Virus record (IMG/VR): IMGVR_UViG_3300042352_001346
Location: 1-64,000 of that record
Length of the DNA stretch: 64,000 nucleotides
Reading direction: 5' to 3' (one strand)
Source: a virus
In this document: positions 45,934-56,025 of the stretch, piece after piece
Numbering within the stretch: position 1 is the stretch's first letter
How the letters are laid out: each line of letters opens with the position of its first letter
The notes under the pieces: generated by a model
Databases searched by the model: none
Told to the model about the DNA's origin: nothing
What the model saw: the letters and a program-made list of their open reading frames with translations, nothing else
Position numbers and translations under genes: made by a program

Positions 45934-46238
45934 GTAAGTTATATTATAAATACATTATTGTTGATGGTGGTCCTATTTTATTTTCTGACAAAGTATCCCA
46001 TCTTCAAGTAGGTGAAGGTTTTTTAAAATCTAAAGCTACTATATATAGTGCAGGATTTTGTTGTATTGAATTTATAGAAGATGAAGAAGTACCTAAAGTA
46101 ATATGTAGTGGTAGAAGTGATTCTTTAAATATTGAATCTCACTCTCAAAATGATGCTATTGTTATTACAGATTTTTTTAAACAATTGAGTGCAGTTAAAT
46201 ATCATTTATTAGTGATAAAAGATTTATATGGAAAGTAA
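45930..46238 (+). CDS. Hypothetical phage protein
   Basis: KYII...PILF....H...SAGF...G.S.SL pattern. Confidence 0.6.
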   Translation: MSKLYYKYIIVDGGPILFSDKVSHLQVGEGFLKSKATIYSAGFCCIEFIEDEEVPKVICSGRSDSLNIESHSQNDAIVITDFFKQLSAVKYHLLVIKDLYGK

Positions 46239-46767
46239 AAAATATAAATTACCAGGTCATAAAGGTAAATTTATGAAAGGACAATCTTCTCAATACCAAA
46301 TTGCAATGGAGAAGTCTATAATTAAAAATTTAGAACGTAAACCTAAAAATAAAGAAATGAAAGTAGCAATTATAGGTAGTCGCACATTTCAAAATAAAAA
46401 TAGTTTGTTTTTAGCACTTAATGATTTTAGAAGAGTATTAAGAGCAACTAAACATACTGATATTACAGAAATAGTATCAGGTGGTGCACAAGGTGCTGAT
46501 TTTTTAGCAGAAGAATATGCTAATGAATCTAAAATTAAGAAAACTATATTTAAAGCTGATTGGAGTGATATGTCTTTACCATGTTCTAAAAAAACAAATG
46601 CACAAGGTAAAGAATATAATGCTTTAGCTGGTTTTAAAAGAAATACACAAATAATAGATTATTGTGACCAAGTAATTGCATTTTGGGATGGTAAAAGTCC
46701 AGGTACTCGTGATAGTATTGAAAAAGCTAAAGCACAAAATAAACCTGTTAAAATTGTAAAAATTTAA
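46228..46767 (+). CDS. SLOG-family (YspA/DUF2493-like) nucleotide-binding protein
   Basis: IIGSR.F, IVSGGAQGAD, AG..RN, AFWDGKSPGT. Confidence 0.85.
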   Translation: MESKKYKLPGHKGKFMKGQSSQYQIAMEKSIIKNLERKPKNKEMKVAIIGSRTFQNKNSLFLALNDFRRVLRATKHTDITEIVSGGAQGADFLAEEYANESKIKKTIFKADWSDMSLPCSKKTNAQGKEYNALAGFKRNTQIIDYCDQVIAFWDGKSPGTRDSIEKAKAQNKPVKIVKI

Positions 46768-48473: not shown

Positions 48474-48505
48474 TTTGGACTTTTAAAAAATTTTTATTAC
48501 TTTTG
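48474..48505 (+). promoter_or_regulatory. Bacteroidota-type promoter abutting the primase ATG
   Basis: TTTG-N20-TACTTTTG. Confidence 0.55.
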
Positions 48506-48506
48506 T

Positions 48507-49520
48507 ATGAGATTCAAAGAAGATGAAATAAAGACAGAATTTAAATTAAAAAAAAGTGGTAATAAAGGATGGTTTTTATCATATAATAATTGTCCTTATT
48601 GTAATAAAACTGAACATTTATCTATTATATTTGGTGAAGTAAGTAGTTTTACTTGTAAAAGGTGTGGTGAACATGGTTCTTTGTATAAATTACTTGAAAA
48701 AGTAGATAGAAAAGATTTAATATTAGGTAATAAAGATTTTATTTCTACTAATAATAAAATTGAAGGTATAAATGAAAATATAATTTCAACAAAAGTATTT
48801 GATTTTAATCTTCCAATTAAACAAAAACCATTAGGATTTATACGAATTTTTGAAAATGATTATTTAGAATCAAGAAATTTTACTAAACAACATTTTGAAA
48901 TTTATACAATAGGAATAAGTACTTTTGACCCATTTGTAAATAAAGATTATATAATATTTGTATGTAATCAATTTAAAAATGAAGTTGGTTGGTTAGCTAG
49001 AAGTAAAAAATCAAAAGAAGAAATTGATGCAATAAATGTTATTCGTAAACAAAAAGAATTACCTAAGTATTTAAGATGGCAAAATAGTATTGATACTGAT
49101 TTTTCAAATATCTTATTTGGTTTTGATGAATTAGAAGAAAATACAAAAATTGTTATTGTAGTTGAAGGTGTTACAAGTAAAGCAAATGTTGATAAATTAT
49201 TAGGTCTTTTTAATCAAAAAACTGTTAAATGTGTAGCTTCATTTGGTAAAAAAATTACAGATTTTCAAATTGCTTTATTAAAAAGTAAAAATATTGAAAC
49301 AGTAATTTTACTTTATGACCCAGATGCAGTTAAAGAAATAAAAGAATATAGTTTTAGACTTGAAGATAATTTCGATAATGTATTAGTAGGCTTTATACCA
49401 TTTAAAAAATCAGATGGTAGTAATAAAGACCCAGGTGATTTAATTAATAGTGAATTAGATAAAGTTATGAATACATTACAAAGTCCAATAAACTTTTTTA
49501 CTGAAAAAATTAAATTTTAA
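48507..49520 (+). CDS. DNA primase (Zn finger + TOPRIM)
   Basis: CPYC...CKRCG, YLESR, VVEG, YDPDA, KDPGD. Confidence 0.88.
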   Translation: MRFKEDEIKTEFKLKKSGNKGWFLSYNNCPYCNKTEHLSIIFGEVSSFTCKRCGEHGSLYKLLEKVDRKDLILGNKDFISTNNKIEGINENIISTKVFDFNLPIKQKPLGFIRIFENDYLESRNFTKQHFEIYTIGISTFDPFVNKDYIIFVCNQFKNEVGWLARSKKSKEEIDAINVIRKQKELPKYLRWQNSIDTDFSNILFGFDELEENTKIVIVVEGVTSKANVDKLLGLFNQKTVKCVASFGKKITDFQIALLKSKNIETVILLYDPDAVKEIKEYSFRLEDNFDNVLVGFIPFKKSDGSNKDPGDLINSELDKVMNTLQSPINFFTEKIKF

Positions 49521-49527
49521 TTATTGT

Positions 49528-50001
49528 ATGGCTTATAAAGATAGAAATATTAGTCCAGTTGAATTTTTAAAAAGATTACAATTAGAGTATATTTGTGCAG
49601 AAATTAGAAAGAAAATTTATATTACTGATTCAGATGTTTCATATTGGAATAAAGTAATGGAAGGTAAAAAAATTAAAATAATTGATTTATCTACTAAAAA
49701 TTTTTTACCAACTATTTTCAATAATGATGAAGAAAAAATAGCCTTATATAAAGAAGTTTATAATCAACAAGGATTGCCTAATTTTATTTATAAAAATCAA
49801 TCTACTGAATTAACTTTAAAACCAAATGATATTAAATTTTATTATTATCCAAATACATCAGTTAGAGTTTATCCAAAAAATGAACCTATGTTTTTAGGTA
49901 CTATAAAATTTACTAATTATGAAGCTGAATTATTAGAAATTCATAGTAATAGTGGTGAAGTTGGTGTATATCCAATGTCGCAAGTATCAAGAATATTGTA
50001 A
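49528..50001 (+). CDS. Hypothetical protein with SH3-like C-terminus
   Basis: 157-aa ORF in the operon. Confidence 0.55.
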   Translation: MAYKDRNISPVEFLKRLQLEYICAEIRKKIYITDSDVSYWNKVMEGKKIKIIDLSTKNFLPTIFNNDEEKIALYKEVYNQQGLPNFIYKNQSTELTLKPNDIKFYYYPNTSVRVYPKNEPMFLGTIKFTNYEAELLEIHSNSGEVGVYPMSQVSRIL

Positions 50002-50021: not shown

Positions 50022-51098
50022 ATGAATAATAAATTATTTTTAACTGATTTTTCTTTTGAAGAAAGTGAAATTGTTGTAACTCCTGTTAATTTTGATTTAA
50101 CATGTTCTTATGGTTTAGGAACGGCTAAAGGTCCAAATTCTTTAATAAAAGAATCAGTTCAAATTGATAATCACTTCCTTAATAGGAAACATAATTCAGT
50201 TGAAGAACCTGCTAAATTCTTTTTAAATAAAGGAGAAATTATTAATGAAATTGCTAAAGCTAATTCATCTTTACGCAAAAGTGTTAATTTATATTGGGAT
50301 ATGGTAGATGAAACTTCTAAAGGAGTTGAAGAAACTGACCAAATAAAAGAACGTAAAAAATTTATTATTAATAGTGTAAATCAATTGCAATCAAATATAT
50401 TTACTATTACAAATTTAATTACAGAAAATGTATTAGAAAATAATAAAATACCTTGTATAATTGGAGGAGACCATTCAATAATTGAAGGTGCTTTATTTGC
50501 TATTGATGAACAATATAAAGATAATTATAATATTTTACAAATTGATGCTCATTGTGATTTAAGAATAGGAGGATATGAAGGATTTGAAAAAAGTCATGCT
50601 TCAATTATGGCAAATATTCTTAGTAATAATATTAATGTAAAATCTTTGGTACAAGTTGGTATTAGAGATTTTTCTAAAAATGAATATAATTTAACTTCAA
50701 TAACTCCTAGACAAGAATTTACAAATAAATATTCACCTACACCTATTTATAAATTTTTAGATGAATATATAGCAGAAGCTGATTATTCATTTAATGGTGG
50801 TGGGTATTTACATAATATTGTTGAAAAAATAGCTTCTGTATTTAATGTAAATAAATGTAAGAATATTTATTTAACATTAGATGTTGATGGTTTAATTCCT
50901 TCTCTTTGTTCCAATACAGGTACACCTGTACCAGGTGGTTTAGATTTTAATAAAGTATTGTTTTTAATTAAAAAATTAAAAGAATGGGGTTTTAACTTTA
51001 TTGGTTTTGATATAGTTGAAATTGGAAATGATAAATTTGATGGTAATGTAGCAAGTCGTTTATTGCATCAAATTGGTAATATAATTACAAAATATTAA
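50022..51098 (+). CDS. speB: Agmatinase-like ureohydrolase
   Basis: GGDHS, DAHCD, SHAS, DVDG...TGTPVPGG, DIVE metal ligands. Confidence 0.88.
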   Translation: MNNKLFLTDFSFEESEIVVTPVNFDLTCSYGLGTAKGPNSLIKESVQIDNHFLNRKHNSVEEPAKFFLNKGEIINEIAKANSSLRKSVNLYWDMVDETSKGVEETDQIKERKKFIINSVNQLQSNIFTITNLITENVLENNKIPCIIGGDHSIIEGALFAIDEQYKDNYNILQIDAHCDLRIGGYEGFEKSHASIMANILSNNINVKSLVQVGIRDFSKNEYNLTSITPRQEFTNKYSPTPIYKFLDEYIAEADYSFNGGGYLHNIVEKIASVFNVNKCKNIYLTLDVDGLIPSLCSNTGTPVPGGLDFNKVLFLIKKLKEWGFNFIGFDIVEIGNDKFDGNVASRLLHQIGNIITKY

Positions 51099-51109
51099 AA
51101 ATAAATTTT

Positions 51110-52132
51110 ATGATTATAATTAATGAAAAAAATGGTTTAGCTAAAATACAAAGTATATCAAATTTTATAGAAAAATATATGTTGCATTTTAATGGTGCAA
51201 ATATGGTTGCTTCTGCAAAATCATTGAAAAAACATTTAGATGGTGGTGGTAAATTAATTATTACATTAGCAGGTGCATTTTCTACAGGTGAATGTGGTAA
51301 ATTATTAGCCCAATTAATTAAAGAAGATAAAGTACATGCAATTTCATGTACAGGTGCTAATATTGAAGAAGATGTTTTTCGTTTATTAGGACAAAGTCAT
51401 TATGGATTTAATTTAAAATATAATGATTTAACACCTCAACAAGAACAAGAGATACTTGATAATGATGTTAATCGTGTTACAGATACAATTATACCTGAAA
51501 AACATGTAATTGATATTCTTTATAAAGGTCTTGATGAAGTTTGGTTTGGAGAGTATGAGCGTAGAAAAGCTAAAGGTAAAATGTGGCATGAATATTTTTA
51601 TGAATTATTTAGTAATAATTATATTCAAGAAAATTTAGATAAAGATGCAGTATTAGAAGATAGTTGGTTATATCAAGCTGCACTTAAAAATTTACCTTTA
51701 TGTGTACCTGGAAATTGTGATAGTACAATGGGTAATGTATTTGCTCAACTTGTAATGGAAGAAGATATTGAAAGTTGGATAATTAAACATGATAGTGAAT
51801 ATATGGTTAGAATGGCTAATTGGTATATTGAATGTTGTAATAATGGTCAAAAATTAGCTATGTTAACTTTAGGTGGTGGTATATCAGCTGATTTTCCACA
51901 AACTATTAGTCCTTTTGTTGTAAAAGATTTAAATCATCCAAATGGTGCTGTTTGGTCACATATGACAGTAGTAACAATGGATATGTCTGTAACTGCAGGA
52001 GGTTTTAGTGGTTGTGCATTAAATGAAAAAATAACATGGGCTAAATTAGGTGTTGATTCAGATAAATTTTTAATCAATAGTGATTTTAGTATTGTATTTC
52101 CTTTAATTGCAGCATATTTATTGGAATTATAA
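51110..52132 (+). CDS. Deoxyhypusine synthase-like protein (SpeY / aminobutyltransferase type)
   Basis: TGANIEED, NRVTD, DSTMGN, GGGISADF, GGFSG...EKITWAKL (catalytic Lys). Confidence 0.9.
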   Translation: MIIINEKNGLAKIQSISNFIEKYMLHFNGANMVASAKSLKKHLDGGGKLIITLAGAFSTGECGKLLAQLIKEDKVHAISCTGANIEEDVFRLLGQSHYGFNLKYNDLTPQQEQEILDNDVNRVTDTIIPEKHVIDILYKGLDEVWFGEYERRKAKGKMWHEYFYELFSNNYIQENLDKDAVLEDSWLYQAALKNLPLCVPGNCDSTMGNVFAQLVMEEDIESWIIKHDSEYMVRMANWYIECCNNGQKLAMLTLGGGISADFPQTISPFVVKDLNHPNGAVWSHMTVVTMDMSVTAGGFSGCALNEKITWAKLGVDSDKFLINSDFSIVFPLIAAYLLEL

Positions 52133-52147
52133 ATAATTTAAAAGAGA

Positions 52148-52179
52148 TTTGGAAGTTTTAAAAAAGGTTTTTATTTTTG
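52148..52179 (+). promoter_or_regulatory. Bacteroidota-type promoter
   Basis: TTTG-N20-TATTTTTG. Confidence 0.7.
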
Positions 52180-52204
52180 TATAAGAAAATTAAATATTAA
52201 TAAA

Positions 52205-53176
52205 ATGCAAAGAAAAGTAAAGTCAATATTAACGACAGCTATTTTTGACGACCCTATAGTTAGTTTAGGCAAATTAGATATGCCAGTATATGCAATGGTT
52301 CCTCCTCTTGGATTTCATGCTAATAATGTAGAAAATAATTATATGAGGTCACTATCTGATGAAGATAGAAAAGTTGATAAAAGACTTTATTTGCAACAAT
52401 GGGGAGATATTTATAGTTATTTAGCTGCTAACTCTTTAGTTTATTTAATTCCAAATCCAAATGAAGATTTACCTGATTTAACTTATTGTTCAAATATTGG
52501 TGTTTGTCTTGATGATGTTGAAGATGGTAAAGTATTTATAGCAAGTAATTTTTCTGCTAAATCAAGAACAGGAGAAACTGCAGTTGGTTATAATTTCTTT
52601 AAATCTATGGGGTATGAAGTTCATGAATGCCCTTATAAATTTGAAGGTTCTGCTGATATGAAACAAATTAAACCTGGTGTTTGGGTTGGTGGATATGGAG
52701 TAAGAACTGAAAAAGAAGCTTATGATTGGATGGAAGAAAAATTTGGCATTAAAATTATAAAAGTAAAAATGCTTAATGATGATTTATATCATCTTGATTG
52801 CTGCTTTATGCCAATTACTAAATTATCTGCTTTATGTTGTAAAGAATGTTTTAGTAAAAAAGATATTGAAACAATTGAAGAAGAAACCGGTATTTATTTA
52901 TATAATATACCATTACAATATGCTGAATATGGTGGTACTAGTTGTATAAGAATGTATAATTCATTATTATTTGCATCTTCACTTGATTATGAAATACCAG
53001 GTACCGAAGAATATGAAATTGAAAAAGGTAAATGTGATTTAATTGAAGAAATTGCATCAGAAGAAGGTCTTGAAATTGTTTACTTTGATATGTCAGAAGG
53101 TTGGAAAGCGGGAGCGGACATGTCGTGCTCATTTTTGGAAATAAACCGTAATTCTTTTAAAATAGATTTACAATAG
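52205..53176 (+). CDS. Pentein (amidinotransferase / arginine dihydrolase-like)
   Basis: PDLTYCSN, R.GE, FEGSAD, YHLDCCF, GADMSC; Asp-His-Cys triad. Confidence 0.85.
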   Translation: MQRKVKSILTTAIFDDPIVSLGKLDMPVYAMVPPLGFHANNVENNYMRSLSDEDRKVDKRLYLQQWGDIYSYLAANSLVYLIPNPNEDLPDLTYCSNIGVCLDDVEDGKVFIASNFSAKSRTGETAVGYNFFKSMGYEVHECPYKFEGSADMKQIKPGVWVGGYGVRTEKEAYDWMEEKFGIKIIKVKMLNDDLYHLDCCFMPITKLSALCCKECFSKKDIETIEEETGIYLYNIPLQYAEYGGTSCIRMYNSLLFASSLDYEIPGTEEYEIEKGKCDLIEEIASEEGLEIVYFDMSEGWKAGADMSCSFLEINRNSFKIDLQ

Positions 53177-53278
53177 CAGAGAAGAAACTGCCATGATTAG
53201 TGTTTTTTTAACCTACTTGGCACTTAAGAAAAACTTACAACCAGTTTTATAGCTAGTTGTTTAAAATTTAAATTTATT

Positions 53279-54031
53279 ATGTCTTATTCAATAGAACATT
53301 TCGTAAGAACAATAGTTGAACCTGCAAAACGTAAAGGTAAAAAATATCTATCAGAAGAATTTTTTTACCGCAATCCCAATAGACCGCAAAAAATAAATTC
53401 CAATTATTTTTATGCACCATCAGATGGTATTATAATTGGAATGAAAGAAGTAATGCTTAAAGATAGTATTTGTGAAATAAAGGGAGAAGCATATACTTTA
53501 GATGATGCAATGGGTGGAAGATTATCTGATGAAGATTATGGTTTTCGTTCTAAAGATAAATTTTTAGTTGTTGAAGTATTTTTAACGATGTATCATGTGC
53601 ATTATACTCGTGTACCTTATGGTGGTATTATTAATACAGAATATTTACCTCCTATTTTAACTCAAAATCTTCCTATGTTAAGTATGGAAAATGACTTATT
53701 AAAAGGAATTGTAAATATGAATAATGCTGATTATTTATTTAATAATTATAGAGCATTTCAATCAATTTATAATCCAAAATTTCAAATTAATTATTTTGTA
53801 TTAAATATAGCTGATTATGATGTTAATGCTATAATTTCTCATCATCAAGACGGGGATTTAATTGGACAAAATGATATACTTGGTGCTATGCAATATGGTT
53901 CGCAAGTAACTTTAATAGTTCCAAAACCTAAAAAATATGATGATTATGATTTAATATTTAATTCTAATCTTAAAGTTGGTGATTGTATTGAAGGTGGATT
54001 AGATTATTTAATTGAATTTATAGATAAATAA
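53279..54031 (+). CDS. Phosphatidylserine-decarboxylase-fold pyruvoyl decarboxylase, no TM anchor
   Basis: FFYRNPNR, APSDG, IKG..Y, FL..YHVH..RVP, YGSQV self-cleavage site. Confidence 0.8.
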   Translation: MSYSIEHFVRTIVEPAKRKGKKYLSEEFFYRNPNRPQKINSNYFYAPSDGIIIGMKEVMLKDSICEIKGEAYTLDDAMGGRLSDEDYGFRSKDKFLVVEVFLTMYHVHYTRVPYGGIINTEYLPPILTQNLPMLSMENDLLKGIVNMNNADYLFNNYRAFQSIYNPKFQINYFVLNIADYDVNAIISHHQDGDLIGQNDILGAMQYGSQVTLIVPKPKKYDDYDLIFNSNLKVGDCIEGGLDYLIEFIDK

Positions 54032-54080: not shown

Positions 54081-54476
54081 ATGTTACTAGTAGCAACACG
54101 TTTGGACGTATCTCCACTTATTCCAGCAGACCATAAGAAAAAAATTGGTTTGTTTGCAGATGAATTAATTCCTGCAGGTACTAAAATTTGGGAATTTACA
54201 AAAGGTATTGATAAAGAAGTATCAGAAACCAATGTAAATAAATTGCCTAAATTGCAAAAAGATTTTGCAAATAGTCAATATCCATGGACAGAAAAGTATT
54301 ATCTTATTTATGGAGATAATACAAGATTTATTAACCATTCAGAAGAACCAAATGTTGGTGAAGAAGGTGATTACCTTGTAGCCTTAAAAGATATTCAAGT
54401 TGGAGAAGAACTTGTATCTGATTATAGAACATTTGAAGAAAATTTTGAAGAATTTAAAGCAGAATATTTTAATTAA
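54081..54476 (+). CDS. SET-domain methyltransferase
   Basis: GLFA...I.AG, RFINHSEEPN, GEELVSDY. Confidence 0.9.
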   Translation: MLLVATRLDVSPLIPADHKKKIGLFADELIPAGTKIWEFTKGIDKEVSETNVNKLPKLQKDFANSQYPWTEKYYLIYGDNTRFINHSEEPNVGEEGDYLVALKDIQVGEELVSDYRTFEENFEEFKAEYFN

Positions 54477-54494
54477 TATTTATTGTTGTATTTT

Positions 54495-54536
54495 AAGCAA
54501 CAAGAATGTATTTATTGCATTCTTGTTGCTTTTTTA
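54495..54536 (+). terminator. Rho-independent terminator
   Basis: AAGCAACAAGAATG...CATTCTTGTTGCTT plus T-run. Confidence 0.85.
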
Positions 54537-54554
54537 ATTAAAAAATTAACTATA

Positions 54555-55061
54555 ATGATATTATCATCAGAAAAAATATTAGAAAGAGACCTTTTACAAA
54601 CTAATGGTAAAGGTGAAGCACAACAATGTGGTTATGATTTAACCCTTTGTAGAGTAACTCAAATACAAGGAAATAGTTTTATTGGAAAAGATAAATCTTT
54701 TATTCCTGAATATATTGAGATTGAAACTGATATATATGTATTTCCTGATGGTAGTAAAAGAGAAGGATGGCATTTATTACCTGGTATTTATAGTTTAACT
54801 TATGAACAAGGTTGTAAATTAGATGCTAGTCATAATGCAACAGTAAAAAATCGTAGTTCTATGCAAAGAAGTGGTACTTTGATAGAGTCTGGTAAGTTTG
54901 ACCCTGGTTTTTCATGTGATAAAACAGGTTCTACAATGTTTGTTTTTTTACCAATTACAATTGAATTTGGTGCTCGTATATCACAATTTGTAGTATCTGA
55001 AAATTATCCTACAGAAAATTTATATAATGGTCAGTATCAAGGTGAAAAAGATAGAAAATAA
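54555..55061 (+). CDS. dCTP deaminase / trimeric dUTPase family
   Basis: GYDLTL, RSSMQRSG, FDPGF, ARISQ, YNGQYQ; ATG 54555 lies downstream of the terminator. Confidence 0.82.
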   Translation: MILSSEKILERDLLQTNGKGEAQQCGYDLTLCRVTQIQGNSFIGKDKSFIPEYIEIETDIYVFPDGSKREGWHLLPGIYSLTYEQGCKLDASHNATVKNRSSMQRSGTLIESGKFDPGFSCDKTGSTMFVFLPITIEFGARISQFVVSENYPTENLYNGQYQGEKDRK

Positions 55062-55074
55062 ATAAATTTATTAT

Positions 55075-56025
55075 ATGGCAGTATTACTTAAAACATCATC
55101 ATTAAGTTATGATGATGTTACTTTATTAGCACAATTAGGAGTTGTAGATAGTAGAAAAGAAGTACCTATTGAAGGTAATCGTATAGTTGTTTCAGCTATG
55201 ACTAGTATAATTGGACCTGCTTTTATTAAAGCAGTTGCAAGTATTTCTCATAATTGGCAACCTACTCTTCATATTCCAAGGGATGAATATAAATTTGAAA
55301 ATGTAAATTTATGTAAAAAATATAATTTAAAAAATATATTTATAGGTGTTGGTTTGAAAGAAGATATTGGATTTGAAAATCATGTATTGTTTCTAACAAA
55401 TTACAGAGTAGCTTTTATAGATATTGCAAATGGTTATTTACCTCAAATAAAAGAACGTGTTAATCAGTTAAAAGCTAAAGGATTTGAAAAAGTAATTTGT
55501 GGTTCTGTACATACTAAAGAAGGTGTAGAATATTTATCTAATTGCGATGTTGATATAATTCGTACAGGTATAGGTACATCTTCATCTATATGTTCTACAC
55601 GTTATACAACAGGATTTTATAGAGCAACAATTTCTGAATTATTAGAATGTTGCCCTTATGCTTATAATGAAAGAAAGTTAATACTTGCAGATGGTGGTTT
55701 TAAATATGTAGGTGATTATGCAAAAGCATTCTTAGCTGGAGCATCTTATTGTATGGGTGGAAAATTATTTACTAATTGTAGAGAAGCAAGAATGCATGTT
55801 GATGGTACAGGTGAATATGTAGGTATGTCAAATCCAGTTAAAGGTGTATCAAATAGTGGTTTTGATGAAAGTTTTTCTGTTAAAATACCACCTCCTACTA
55901 AAGATTTACATGATGTGATAAGAGAAATATGGGATGGTTTACGTTCTGCAGTTTCTTATTCAGGATATAATACCTTAGAAAATGCTATTGGTAATGGTGT
56001 TTTTGAACAAAAAATAAAATTGTAA
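55075..56025 (+). CDS. guaC: GMP reductase / IMPDH family
   Basis: SYDDV.L, IDIANG, GIG...ICSTR, ADGG, GLRSAVSY; no CBS domains. Confidence 0.8.
   Translation: MAVLLKTSSLSYDDVTLLAQLGVVDSRKEVPIEGNRIVVSAMTSIIGPAFIKAVASISHNWQPTLHIPRDEYKFENVNLCKKYNLKNIFIGVGLKEDIGFENHVLFLTNYRVAFIDIANGYLPQIKERVNQLKAKGFEKVICGSVHTKEGVEYLSNCDVDIIRTGIGTSSSICSTRYTTGFYRATISELLECCPYAYNERKLILADGGFKYVGDYAKAFLAGASYCMGGKLFTNCREARMHVDGTGEYVGMSNPVKGVSNSGFDESFSVKIPPPTKDLHDVIREIWDGLRSAVSYSGYNTLENAIGNGVFEQKIKL

Follow-up and report, generated by a model that had tools for sequence, protein, structure and literature searches.

We analysed a stretch of 64,000 nucleotides (the window), positions 1 to 64,000 of IMG/VR virus record IMGVR_UViG_3300042352_001346 (80,908 bases, CheckV completeness 64%, G+C about 25%), with respect to four adjoining plus-strand genes at positions 50,022 to 54,031. 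They encode an arginase-family ureohydrolase, a deoxyhypusine-synthase (DHS)-like protein, a pentein and a protein of the phosphatidylserine decarboxylase (PSD) fold. In our estimate there is an even chance that they make up two separate polyamine modules, next to each other in a phage whose host is of Bacteroidota type, one leading from arginine through ornithine to putrescine (pentein and PSD-like protein) and the other from agmatine through N1,N9-bis(guanidino)homospermidine (G44G) to homospermidine (DHS-like protein and ureohydrolase). The analysis shows to which families the proteins belong, that their catalytic residues are intact, how often the genes are paired, and which transcription units and which complex are predicted; all substrates and products are inferred.

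The four open reading frames (ORFs) are separated by gaps of 11, 72 and 102 bases. An initial annotation of this DNA had described four contiguous enzymes with intact catalytic motifs between primase and nucleotide/polymerase genes; the ORFs, the Pfam matches, the residues and the flanks were all found as described, and the polyamine theme stands. All Pfam matches were above the gathering score, with E values of 5.9e-40 for the ureohydrolase (PF00491, Arginase), 1.9e-33 for the DHS-like protein (PF01916, DS) and 1.6e-16 for the PSD-like protein (PF02666, PS_Dcarbxylase; 61 bits against a cut-off of 22). The pentein barely passed the cut-off of 23 of the DDAH-type model PF19420 (23.7 bits, E 3.3e-05), a weak call that was backed by an NCBIfam arginine dihydrolase match (E 1.5e-23). 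NCBIfam assigned all four proteins to the same families, in line with the earlier assignments.

The two gene pairs were found to occur independently of each other. A search of viral sequences with the pentein profile returned 220 contigs, of which the best 80 were counted together with locus L005 (on the same contig as locus L007), giving 81 loci. Homologs of the ureohydrolase and the DHS-like protein were present in only three of these, from two contigs, and the other 78 were without them. In bacterial genomes 144 loci with a pentein relative were found, and none of the 80 kept for the counts, including all 70 in which the PSD-like gene is next to the pentein gene, had an agmatinase or DHS homolog. 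Among 46 viral loci with a DHS-like gene, an arginase-family gene was nearby in four, and the pentein and PSD-like genes in two, both on contigs already found. The DHS-like gene was thus without pentein and PSD in 44 of 46 viral loci, and the same was true for 80 of 80 metagenome loci, kept out of 591 in a scan with a profile of the phage-clade DHS; only bacterial-type DHS (at most 45% identity) and no further four-gene cluster was seen among these 80. Besides this record, two further virus contigs (one with loci L005, L007 and L088, the other with L006 and L110) have the full set, and it perhaps also occurs in a contig of 14,761 bases listed for both P0002 (a DHS, 66% identical) and P0123 (a pentein). 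The initial annotation proposed one self-contained route of four genes and listed independent occurrence of the two pairs among the results that would refute it; the pairs do occur independently, and they also fall in different predicted transcription units, so that a single co-evolving route is not supported.

The transcription units were predicted from promoter and terminator motifs. The sequence TTTG N19-21 TAnnTTTG, which we take to be the Bacteroides-type promoter consensus, was matched 12 times in the window against 3.16 expected, a number reached in 0 of 100 shuffles, and 11 of the matches were on the plus strand, most of them just before ORFs. One plus-strand match (48474..48505) lies directly before the primase gene (48507-49520), which is followed by a conserved ORF without assigned function (49528-50001; the two, 48507..50001 on the plus strand, have homologs in L005-L008 and L010) and then by the ureohydrolase gene. 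There is no further motif until 52148, where a second plus-strand match (52148..52179) occupies the 72-base gap before the pentein gene; in L008, L010 and Bacteroides phage SJC03, too, this motif precedes the pentein gene. Downstream of the PSD-like gene a SET-domain protein of 131 amino acids (aa) is encoded (54081..54476, plus strand), probably on the same transcript. It is followed by a terminator-like hairpin with a 16-pair stem and a T run (54495..54531, plus strand), the likely end of this unit; seven terminator-like sites were found in the scan against 1.4 expected. The hairpin falls inside a TTG-started ORF (54483-55061), the true start of which is probably an ATG at about 54555. The motifs at 48474 and 52148 and the terminator thus point to two likely units, primase/ORF/ureohydrolase/DHS-like and pentein/PSD-like/SET. 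A sigma-70 promoter scan (85 sites against 95.3 expected) was uninformative.

An extended sequence of about 32 bases, built on this promoter pattern, was common to eight intergenic plus-strand sites (8150, 12530, 27592, 37361, 43830, 48474, 52148 and 56031), and these look like a phage promoter class.

The gene order in L008, L010 and SJC03 is primase, promoter motif, pentein, PSD-like, dUTPase-like, GMP-reductase-like and DNA polymerase III (Pol III) alpha, without the ureohydrolase/DHS pair and without the SET gene. The pentein pair is therefore the older resident, and the ureohydrolase/DHS pair was added beside it. A Bacteroidota host is indicated by the promoter type, the relatives of the DHS-like protein and the related Bacteroides phages.

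The pentein gene (52205..53176, plus strand) encodes a putative guanidino-group hydrolase of 323 aa. In a profile search of solved structures only the ArgZ/AgrE arginine dihydrolases were matched (E 2e-30 to 1e-26), and they were also the best Foldseek match of the AlphaFold (AF2) model (pLDDT 89.4; E 8.5e-22, TM 0.90 by target, root-mean-square deviation 2.3 A), with DDAH next; both profile and fold bear out the ArgZ-type pentein of the initial annotation. Residues D91, N97, R121, E124, E147, R167, H196, D198 and C308 are intact. They comprise the Cys-His-Asp set, the equivalent of ArgZ Asn71 in the alignment (N97) and two arginines shared with ArgZ (R121 and R167), which by analogy with DDAH structures would bind the alpha-carboxylate of the substrate; this would favour an amino acid as substrate. 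An ArgZ N71S mutant traps the covalent intermediate (PDB title of 6juz). The nine sites were conserved in 81 of 82 viral proteins, and among the bacterial penteins (n = 80) eight were present in all and R121 in 79. The phage pentein thus has the fold, the Cys-His-Asp set, the Asn71 equivalent and the two substrate-site arginines in common with ArgZ (Synechocystis Sll1336) and AgrE (Anabaena Alr4995; PDB 6juy-6jv1, 6lrf-6lrh). Whereas the chains of these two run to about 700 aa and include an ornithine-cyclodeaminase-like part at the C-terminus, the phage pentein is a single domain, 20-22% identical to them, and it is always partnered with a PSD-fold decarboxylase. The ArgZ/AgrE reaction turns L-arginine into ornithine, 2 NH3 and CO2, and the phage pentein would probably do likewise.

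The PSD-like gene (53279..54031, plus strand) encodes 250 aa, with D49-G50, H108 and the self-cleavage site Gly207-Ser208 all retained; the five sites were conserved in all 73 viral and all 66 bacterial proteins compared. The best sequence match was E. coli phosphatidylserine decarboxylase (E 1.5e-9, over the N-terminal 94 profile positions only). With the protein model (pLDDT 82.1), Foldseek found E. coli PSD (E 5.9e-7), the tryptophan decarboxylase PsiD (8e-5) and the arginine decarboxylase (ADC) Ao-ADC1 (9jer, 1.9e-3). No hydrophobic segment was detected, the highest 19-residue Kyte-Doolittle mean being 0.85. Given this and the matches to the PSD fold, the protein is best described as a soluble pyruvoyl-type decarboxylase, as the initial annotation had it, from a family known to include amino-acid decarboxylases such as Ao-ADC1 of Aspergillus oryzae (PMC12904898, accessible text). 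With E. coli PSD (PDB 6l06, 7cnw), its top match in both sequence and fold, it has the self-cleavage Asp, His and Ser in common, but it lacks the membrane-type hydrophobic segment and has a pentein partner. Ao-ADC1 (PDB 9jer, 9jf5) and Psilocybe PsiD (8x4q) are likewise soluble, carry the Gly-Ser pyruvoyl site on the PSD fold and are precedents for free amino-acid substrates; the likeness is however at the fold level only (14-18% identity), and they are about 440-480 aa long. Ao-ADC1 (9jer) aligned with a TM of 0.47 by query and 16% identity, below E. coli PSD and PsiD, and was absent from the sequence-profile matches. The modelled fold alone does not reveal the substrate.

An intein, recognized by an N-terminal splicing region and helicase-type intein matches, interrupts the PSD-like homologs P0287 and P0419. 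A search of the ESM Atlas returned only clusters named 'phosphatidylserine decarboxylase family protein', mostly viral, and gave no functional lead.

The pentein and PSD-like genes are closely associated. A PSD-like homolog was present in 79 of the 81 viral pentein loci, and in 77 of these it starts at most 150 bases downstream of the pentein gene; in the two loci without one the sequence stops shortly past the pentein gene. In the 70 of 80 bacterial loci where the two genes are adjacent, their order is mostly the opposite. A gene for a PotD-like polyamine-binding protein is present in nine of the 80 bacterial pentein loci, which links the pair to polyamines in bacteria. Among cultured phages both genes were found, not adjacent, in 39 Campylobacter phage records (about 124-135 kb) and, adjacent, in six Bacteroides thetaiotaomicron phages (DAC16, DAC19, DAC20, DAC22, DAC23 and SJC03). 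In marine contigs the pair lies mostly between a gene that we read by eye as capsid-like, present in 72 of the 81 loci, and one that we read as PhoH-like, present in 67. A search of the cluster DNA against 50,697 phage records gave no match.

Structure prediction suggests that the two proteins bind each other. The modelled complex of pentein and PSD-like protein scored 0.73, compared to 0.00 for the best of three controls; 58 of 80 solved complexes attain this mark, as do two of 110 mismatched pairs; contacts agreed between runs to at least 97%, and the pLDDT of the partners was at least 82. In the predicted interface, strand 290-295 and helix 64-75 of the pentein pack against residues 34-43 of the PSD-like protein. 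The two proteins thus probably act as a physical complex, as far as the models tell; we know of no solved pentein-PSD complex. No pentein domain was found in the seven long PSD-like proteins that were scanned for a fusion of the Rosetta-stone kind; two of the seven contain inteins. In locus L007 (contig IMGVR_UViG_3300037067_024045) the pentein gene is present twice. The gene that follows DHS is intact, and the one abutting the PSD-like gene (L007:13236-14105) has lost eight of the nine residues for catalysis or binding; among the changes are Cys to Asp, His to Tyr and the deletion of an Arg. Of the 19 predicted interface positions, 10 still have the majority residue of the family, compared to 110 of the 285 positions aligned overall and one of the nine catalytic ones. 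The dead copy may be a pseudoenzyme partner; this fits a structural role, the enrichment at the interface being modest.

The first two genes of the cluster resemble the bacterial SpeY pathway. The SpeY-like member of the DHS family (51110..52132, plus strand; 340 aa) retains the catalytic Lys312 of the WGK-type motif, here EKITWAK; Lys312 was invariant in 14 of 14 aligned sequences, and the protein was aligned with archaeal DHS (7cmc). Its closest cellular relatives are Bacteroidota DHS-family proteins with 41-46% identity. The gene begins 11 bases past an arginase-family gene, and a similar neighbour is found in L005/L007 and L006; among the metagenome DHS homologs, an arginase-family gene of about 312 aa was directly upstream in 28 of 80 loci, in the same order as in the phage. 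As to whether the DHS gene was acquired once or twice, the DHS of L110 fell outside the clade of the window protein in the free tree, and the approximately unbiased (AU) test did not reject a single clade (p 0.41). Work on Thermus (PMC10981699) is also said to concern a pathway from agmatine through G44G to homospermidine. According to the accessible text of Li et al. (J Biol Chem 2026, PMC13625781), each bacterial SpeY tested, that of the flavobacterium Winogradskyella algicola among them, joins two agmatines into G44G, and SpeY 'must have agmatine'. The initial annotation had the DHS-like protein act through putrescine and aminobutylagmatine, which conflicts with these results. The same text proposes speY and duh as a unit for horizontal transfer, DUH being the SpeY-linked SpeB homologs, described there as G44G-specific ureohydrolases; every SpeB homolog tested hydrolysed G44G (PMC13625781). 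The phage genes share with this module a DHS-family gene with the catalytic Lys and an arginase-family gene directly before it. They differ in being phage-encoded, in the divergence of their DHS clade and in having no accompanying ADC gene.

DHS/SpeY-like genes were seen in 46 IMG/VR contigs (L088-L133) of several lineages, mostly with no agmatinase nearby, a count that may include host DNA flanking proviruses.

The ureohydrolase gene (50022..51098, plus strand; 358 aa) belongs to the agmatinase branch of the arginase family. Its motifs GGDHS (148-152), DAHCD (175-179) and LDVDG (286-290) align with the same motifs in the agmatinase structures 3lhl and 3pzl, and a further motif, DIVE, is found at 330-333. 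From arginase structures we take GGDH, DAHxD and DxD to be the binuclear-metal ligands of the superfamily, and these are intact; G44G or agmatine would be the most likely substrate. The closest relatives (35-40% identity) come from Bacteroidota, are about 350 aa long and bear the name 'agmatinase family'. Such paralogs (E at most 1e-40) were present in 15 of 151 sampled Bacteroidota genomes, and 13 of these 15 also have a DHS gene.

We propose that the four enzymes would work as follows. In the first module, expressed from its own promoter, the ArgZ-like hydrolase would strip the guanidino group from L-arginine to give ornithine, and the PSD-fold enzyme, after self-cleavage at Gly207-Ser208 to form its pyruvoyl cofactor, would decarboxylate ornithine to putrescine. 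This order is favoured because the pentein keeps the ArgZ substrate site; putrescine is the end product under either order of the two reactions, via ornithine or via agmatine. In the second module, probably co-transcribed with primase, the SpeY-like enzyme would couple two molecules of agmatine, supplied by the arginine decarboxylase of the host, to G44G, from which the ureohydrolase would release homospermidine. Together the modules would raise putrescine and homospermidine during replication.

Several observations weigh against this proposal of two modules. Every NCBIfam score was far below the curated cut-off: the pentein reached 83 bits against 450 (for NF052231, 82.7 against 1025), the best of 13 PSD models gave 52.7 bits against 183, and the DHS-like protein failed to reach the curated SpeY family score. 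None of the four is therefore an orthodox member of its named enzyme family. The window DHS belongs to a clade of six (with L088 and four metagenome proteins; support 100) on a stem of 1.13 changes per column, and given this long stem the specificity of the phage clade may have shifted. In a quick tree of 31 rows the phage ureohydrolase, together with the L088 and L110 proteins, was placed outside the DHS-adjacent bacterial clade (support 98), the phage rows being long branches of unsure exact placement. It is about 45 aa longer than the SpeY-linked DUH, and its nearest paralogs are not beside speY: in the six genomes with both on one contig, the paralogs of about 350 aa lie 0.9-3.4 Mb away from the speY/DHS gene. 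In Bacteroidota the short SpeY-adjacent form was only weakly matched, with phmmer E values of 4e-25 and 1e-12 for two SpeY-adjacent proteins against 2e-52 to 6e-43 for six non-adjacent long paralogs. As for the pentein pair, the bacterial loci often have a MATE efflux protein (45 of 80) or an MsbA-like ABC exporter (23 of 80) as neighbour, which would also suit a secreted metabolite. A profile test of Campylobacterota genomes with the pair gave strong SpeA matches in four (one above the cut-off, three in pieces) and a weak one in a fifth; the pair therefore does not replace ADC in those four, a result that does not tell the order of the pentein and PSD-like reactions. The second module would rely on the host for agmatine unless the PSD-like enzyme makes it, and no known ADC is present: the models for the four folds of canonical ADC and ornithine decarboxylase (ODC) enzymes (PF02784, PF01276, PF02675, PF01862) gave 0 matches each in all 80,908 bases, extending to the whole record the absence of SpeA and ODC reported in the initial annotation. 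Finally, although the surrounding gene order differs between the three contigs, each has a pentein gene immediately downstream of the ureohydrolase/DHS pair, and this constant position hints at a tie closer than neighbourhood.

The last two points also speak for an integrated, host-independent route to homospermidine, which we consider unlikely. The PSD-fold protein, the sole decarboxylase candidate in the record, would here be a pyruvoyl ADC, the SpeY-like protein would make G44G, and the ureohydrolase, perhaps with the pentein, would strip the guanidino groups; in phages with the pentein pair only, the pentein would convert agmatine to putrescine. Such a route would satisfy the agmatine requirement of SpeY, and a decarboxylase clustered with speY proved to be an ADC even where it was ODC-like in appearance (PMC13625781, accessible text). 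Ao-ADC1 shows that an ADC of the PSD family exists, and in L007 the loss of an agmatine-consuming pentein beside the PSD-like gene would spare agmatine for SpeY. However, the two arginines that the pentein shares with ArgZ fit arginine better than agmatine, if they hold the carboxylate as we presume from DDAH, and the fold-level match to Ao-ADC1 is weaker than those to E. coli PSD and PsiD. The two pairs are moreover inherited independently and lie in separate predicted units. We tentatively add, as a rather doubtful extension, that the pentein/PSD heteromer may channel substrate in an undescribed arginine-to-diamine route of hundreds of phages and many bacterial phyla, and that in this lineage of phages the PSD-fold enzyme may represent a new class of ADC in prokaryotes and viruses and feed the phage SpeY, which would be the first virus-encoded, host-independent pathway from agmatine to homospermidine.

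It is decidedly less probable that the products are not bulk polyamines and that the enzymes make a specialised amine or guanidino compound for DNA or protein modification, for anti-defence or, in bacteria, for secretion. The exporters beside the bacterial pair would be explained in this way. In L006 (3824-5874, 9714-12744) and L007 (10410-13239, 15829-16923) the cluster is interleaved with genes for FolE, QueD, QueE, a PAD_porph (agmatine-deiminase-type) pentein, a MazG-like protein and DUF5591 proteins; we read the latter as DpdA-like and the genes as 7-deazaguanine DNA modification, with no QueC seen in the stretches examined. No FolE, QueD, QueE or AIH-like (PAD_porph) gene was found by tblastn in the present record, so the cluster does not need them. 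The isolated carriers of the pair include Campylobacter phage NCTC 12673, one of the Fletcherviruses, which replace deoxyguanosine (dG) by deoxyinosine (dI) (PMC13091555, accessible text). Yet the many lineages of phages and bacteria that have the pair share no modification gene, and Pfam scans of 20 further ORFs of the record revealed no aminoacyl- or amine-transferase for DNA. The SET-domain gene, which shares the predicted unit of the pentein and PSD-like genes, has no homolog among the 81 related viral loci.

That the PSD-like protein is a true phosphatidylserine decarboxylase remodelling host membrane lipid, in keeping with its PF02666 match and with the GenBank label of the Campylobacter phage homologs, is hardly credible in view of its scores with the 13 NCBIfam PSD models, the missing hydrophobic segment, the constant pairing with and predicted binding to an arginine-type hydrolase, and its membership of a distinct subfamily (128 representatives at E at most 1e-30 in a library at 50% identity).

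The plus strand carries nearly all genes of the record, among them those for terminase, a UvrD-type helicase, UvdE, a DnaB-like helicase, primase, Pol III alpha and RecA. The cluster is flanked on its 5' side by the DnaB-like helicase and primase genes, and on its 3' side by genes for a dUTPase/dCTP-deaminase (DCD)-like protein, a GMP-reductase-like protein and Pol III alpha. The first two of these (54483-56025, the second of the GMP-reductase/IMPDH family) lie directly 3' of the pentein/PSD pair, and their order is conserved in L008, L010 and Bacteroides phages DAC16-23/SJC03; no match to the GMP-reductase-like protein was found in the Campylobacter phages that carry the pentein pair. A step from (d)GMP to (d)IMP by this enzyme would be of interest, as some phages swap dG for dI. 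Upstream of the replication genes, a SLOG-family (YspA/DprA-like) protein is encoded at 46228-46767. Outside the window, record positions 70670-72419 (L087:8671-10420) encode a P-loop AAA_28 protein of 190 aa and then a protein of 391 aa with a partial ThyX (Thy1) match, a pair that may serve nucleotide metabolism or the modification of bases.

Genes of polyamine metabolism are known from phages; polyamines themselves neutralise DNA in the capsid and also support translation. In the accessible text of a survey by Li et al. (PNAS 2023, PMC9992855) of polyamine genes among NCBI virus proteins, no SpeY/DHS homolog is reported from virus or phage proteomes, and one phage agmatinase is. The surveyed genes are comparable to those described here in that the phages encode enzymes for putrescine and homospermidine, including pyruvoyl-dependent ADC/ODC; they differ in that those decarboxylases descend from AdoMetDC and that homospermidine is made by HSS in the viruses surveyed, whereas here the decarboxylase has the PSD fold and the homospermidine enzyme is SpeY-like. 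The route had been called undescribed in the initial annotation. This does not hold for speY with a ureohydrolase, which is a known module, or for an ADC of the PSD family, known from A. oryzae (PMC12904898, accessible text); on the pentein/PSD pair we found no paper in the literature searches made, one work naming psd and amidinotransferase separately as auxiliary genes of ocean viruses. Three things are new here: that the pentein/PSD pair is joined with a SpeY-like module of a phage, that the two proteins of the pair are predicted to form a heteromer, and that a dead paralog exists.

If these readings hold, SpeY-type homospermidine synthesis is phage-encoded, a trait not found in viruses by the 2023 survey as far as its accessible text goes (PMC9992855). 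The complex of a PSD-fold decarboxylase with an ArgZ-like hydrolase would, if true, add another convergent route to putrescine or agmatine. The pair is present in cultured Bacteroides and Campylobacter phages and is hence open to genetics. In that case phage and bacterial proteins now annotated as 'phosphatidylserine decarboxylase' or 'amidinotransferase/DDAH' would have to be renamed by the thousand.

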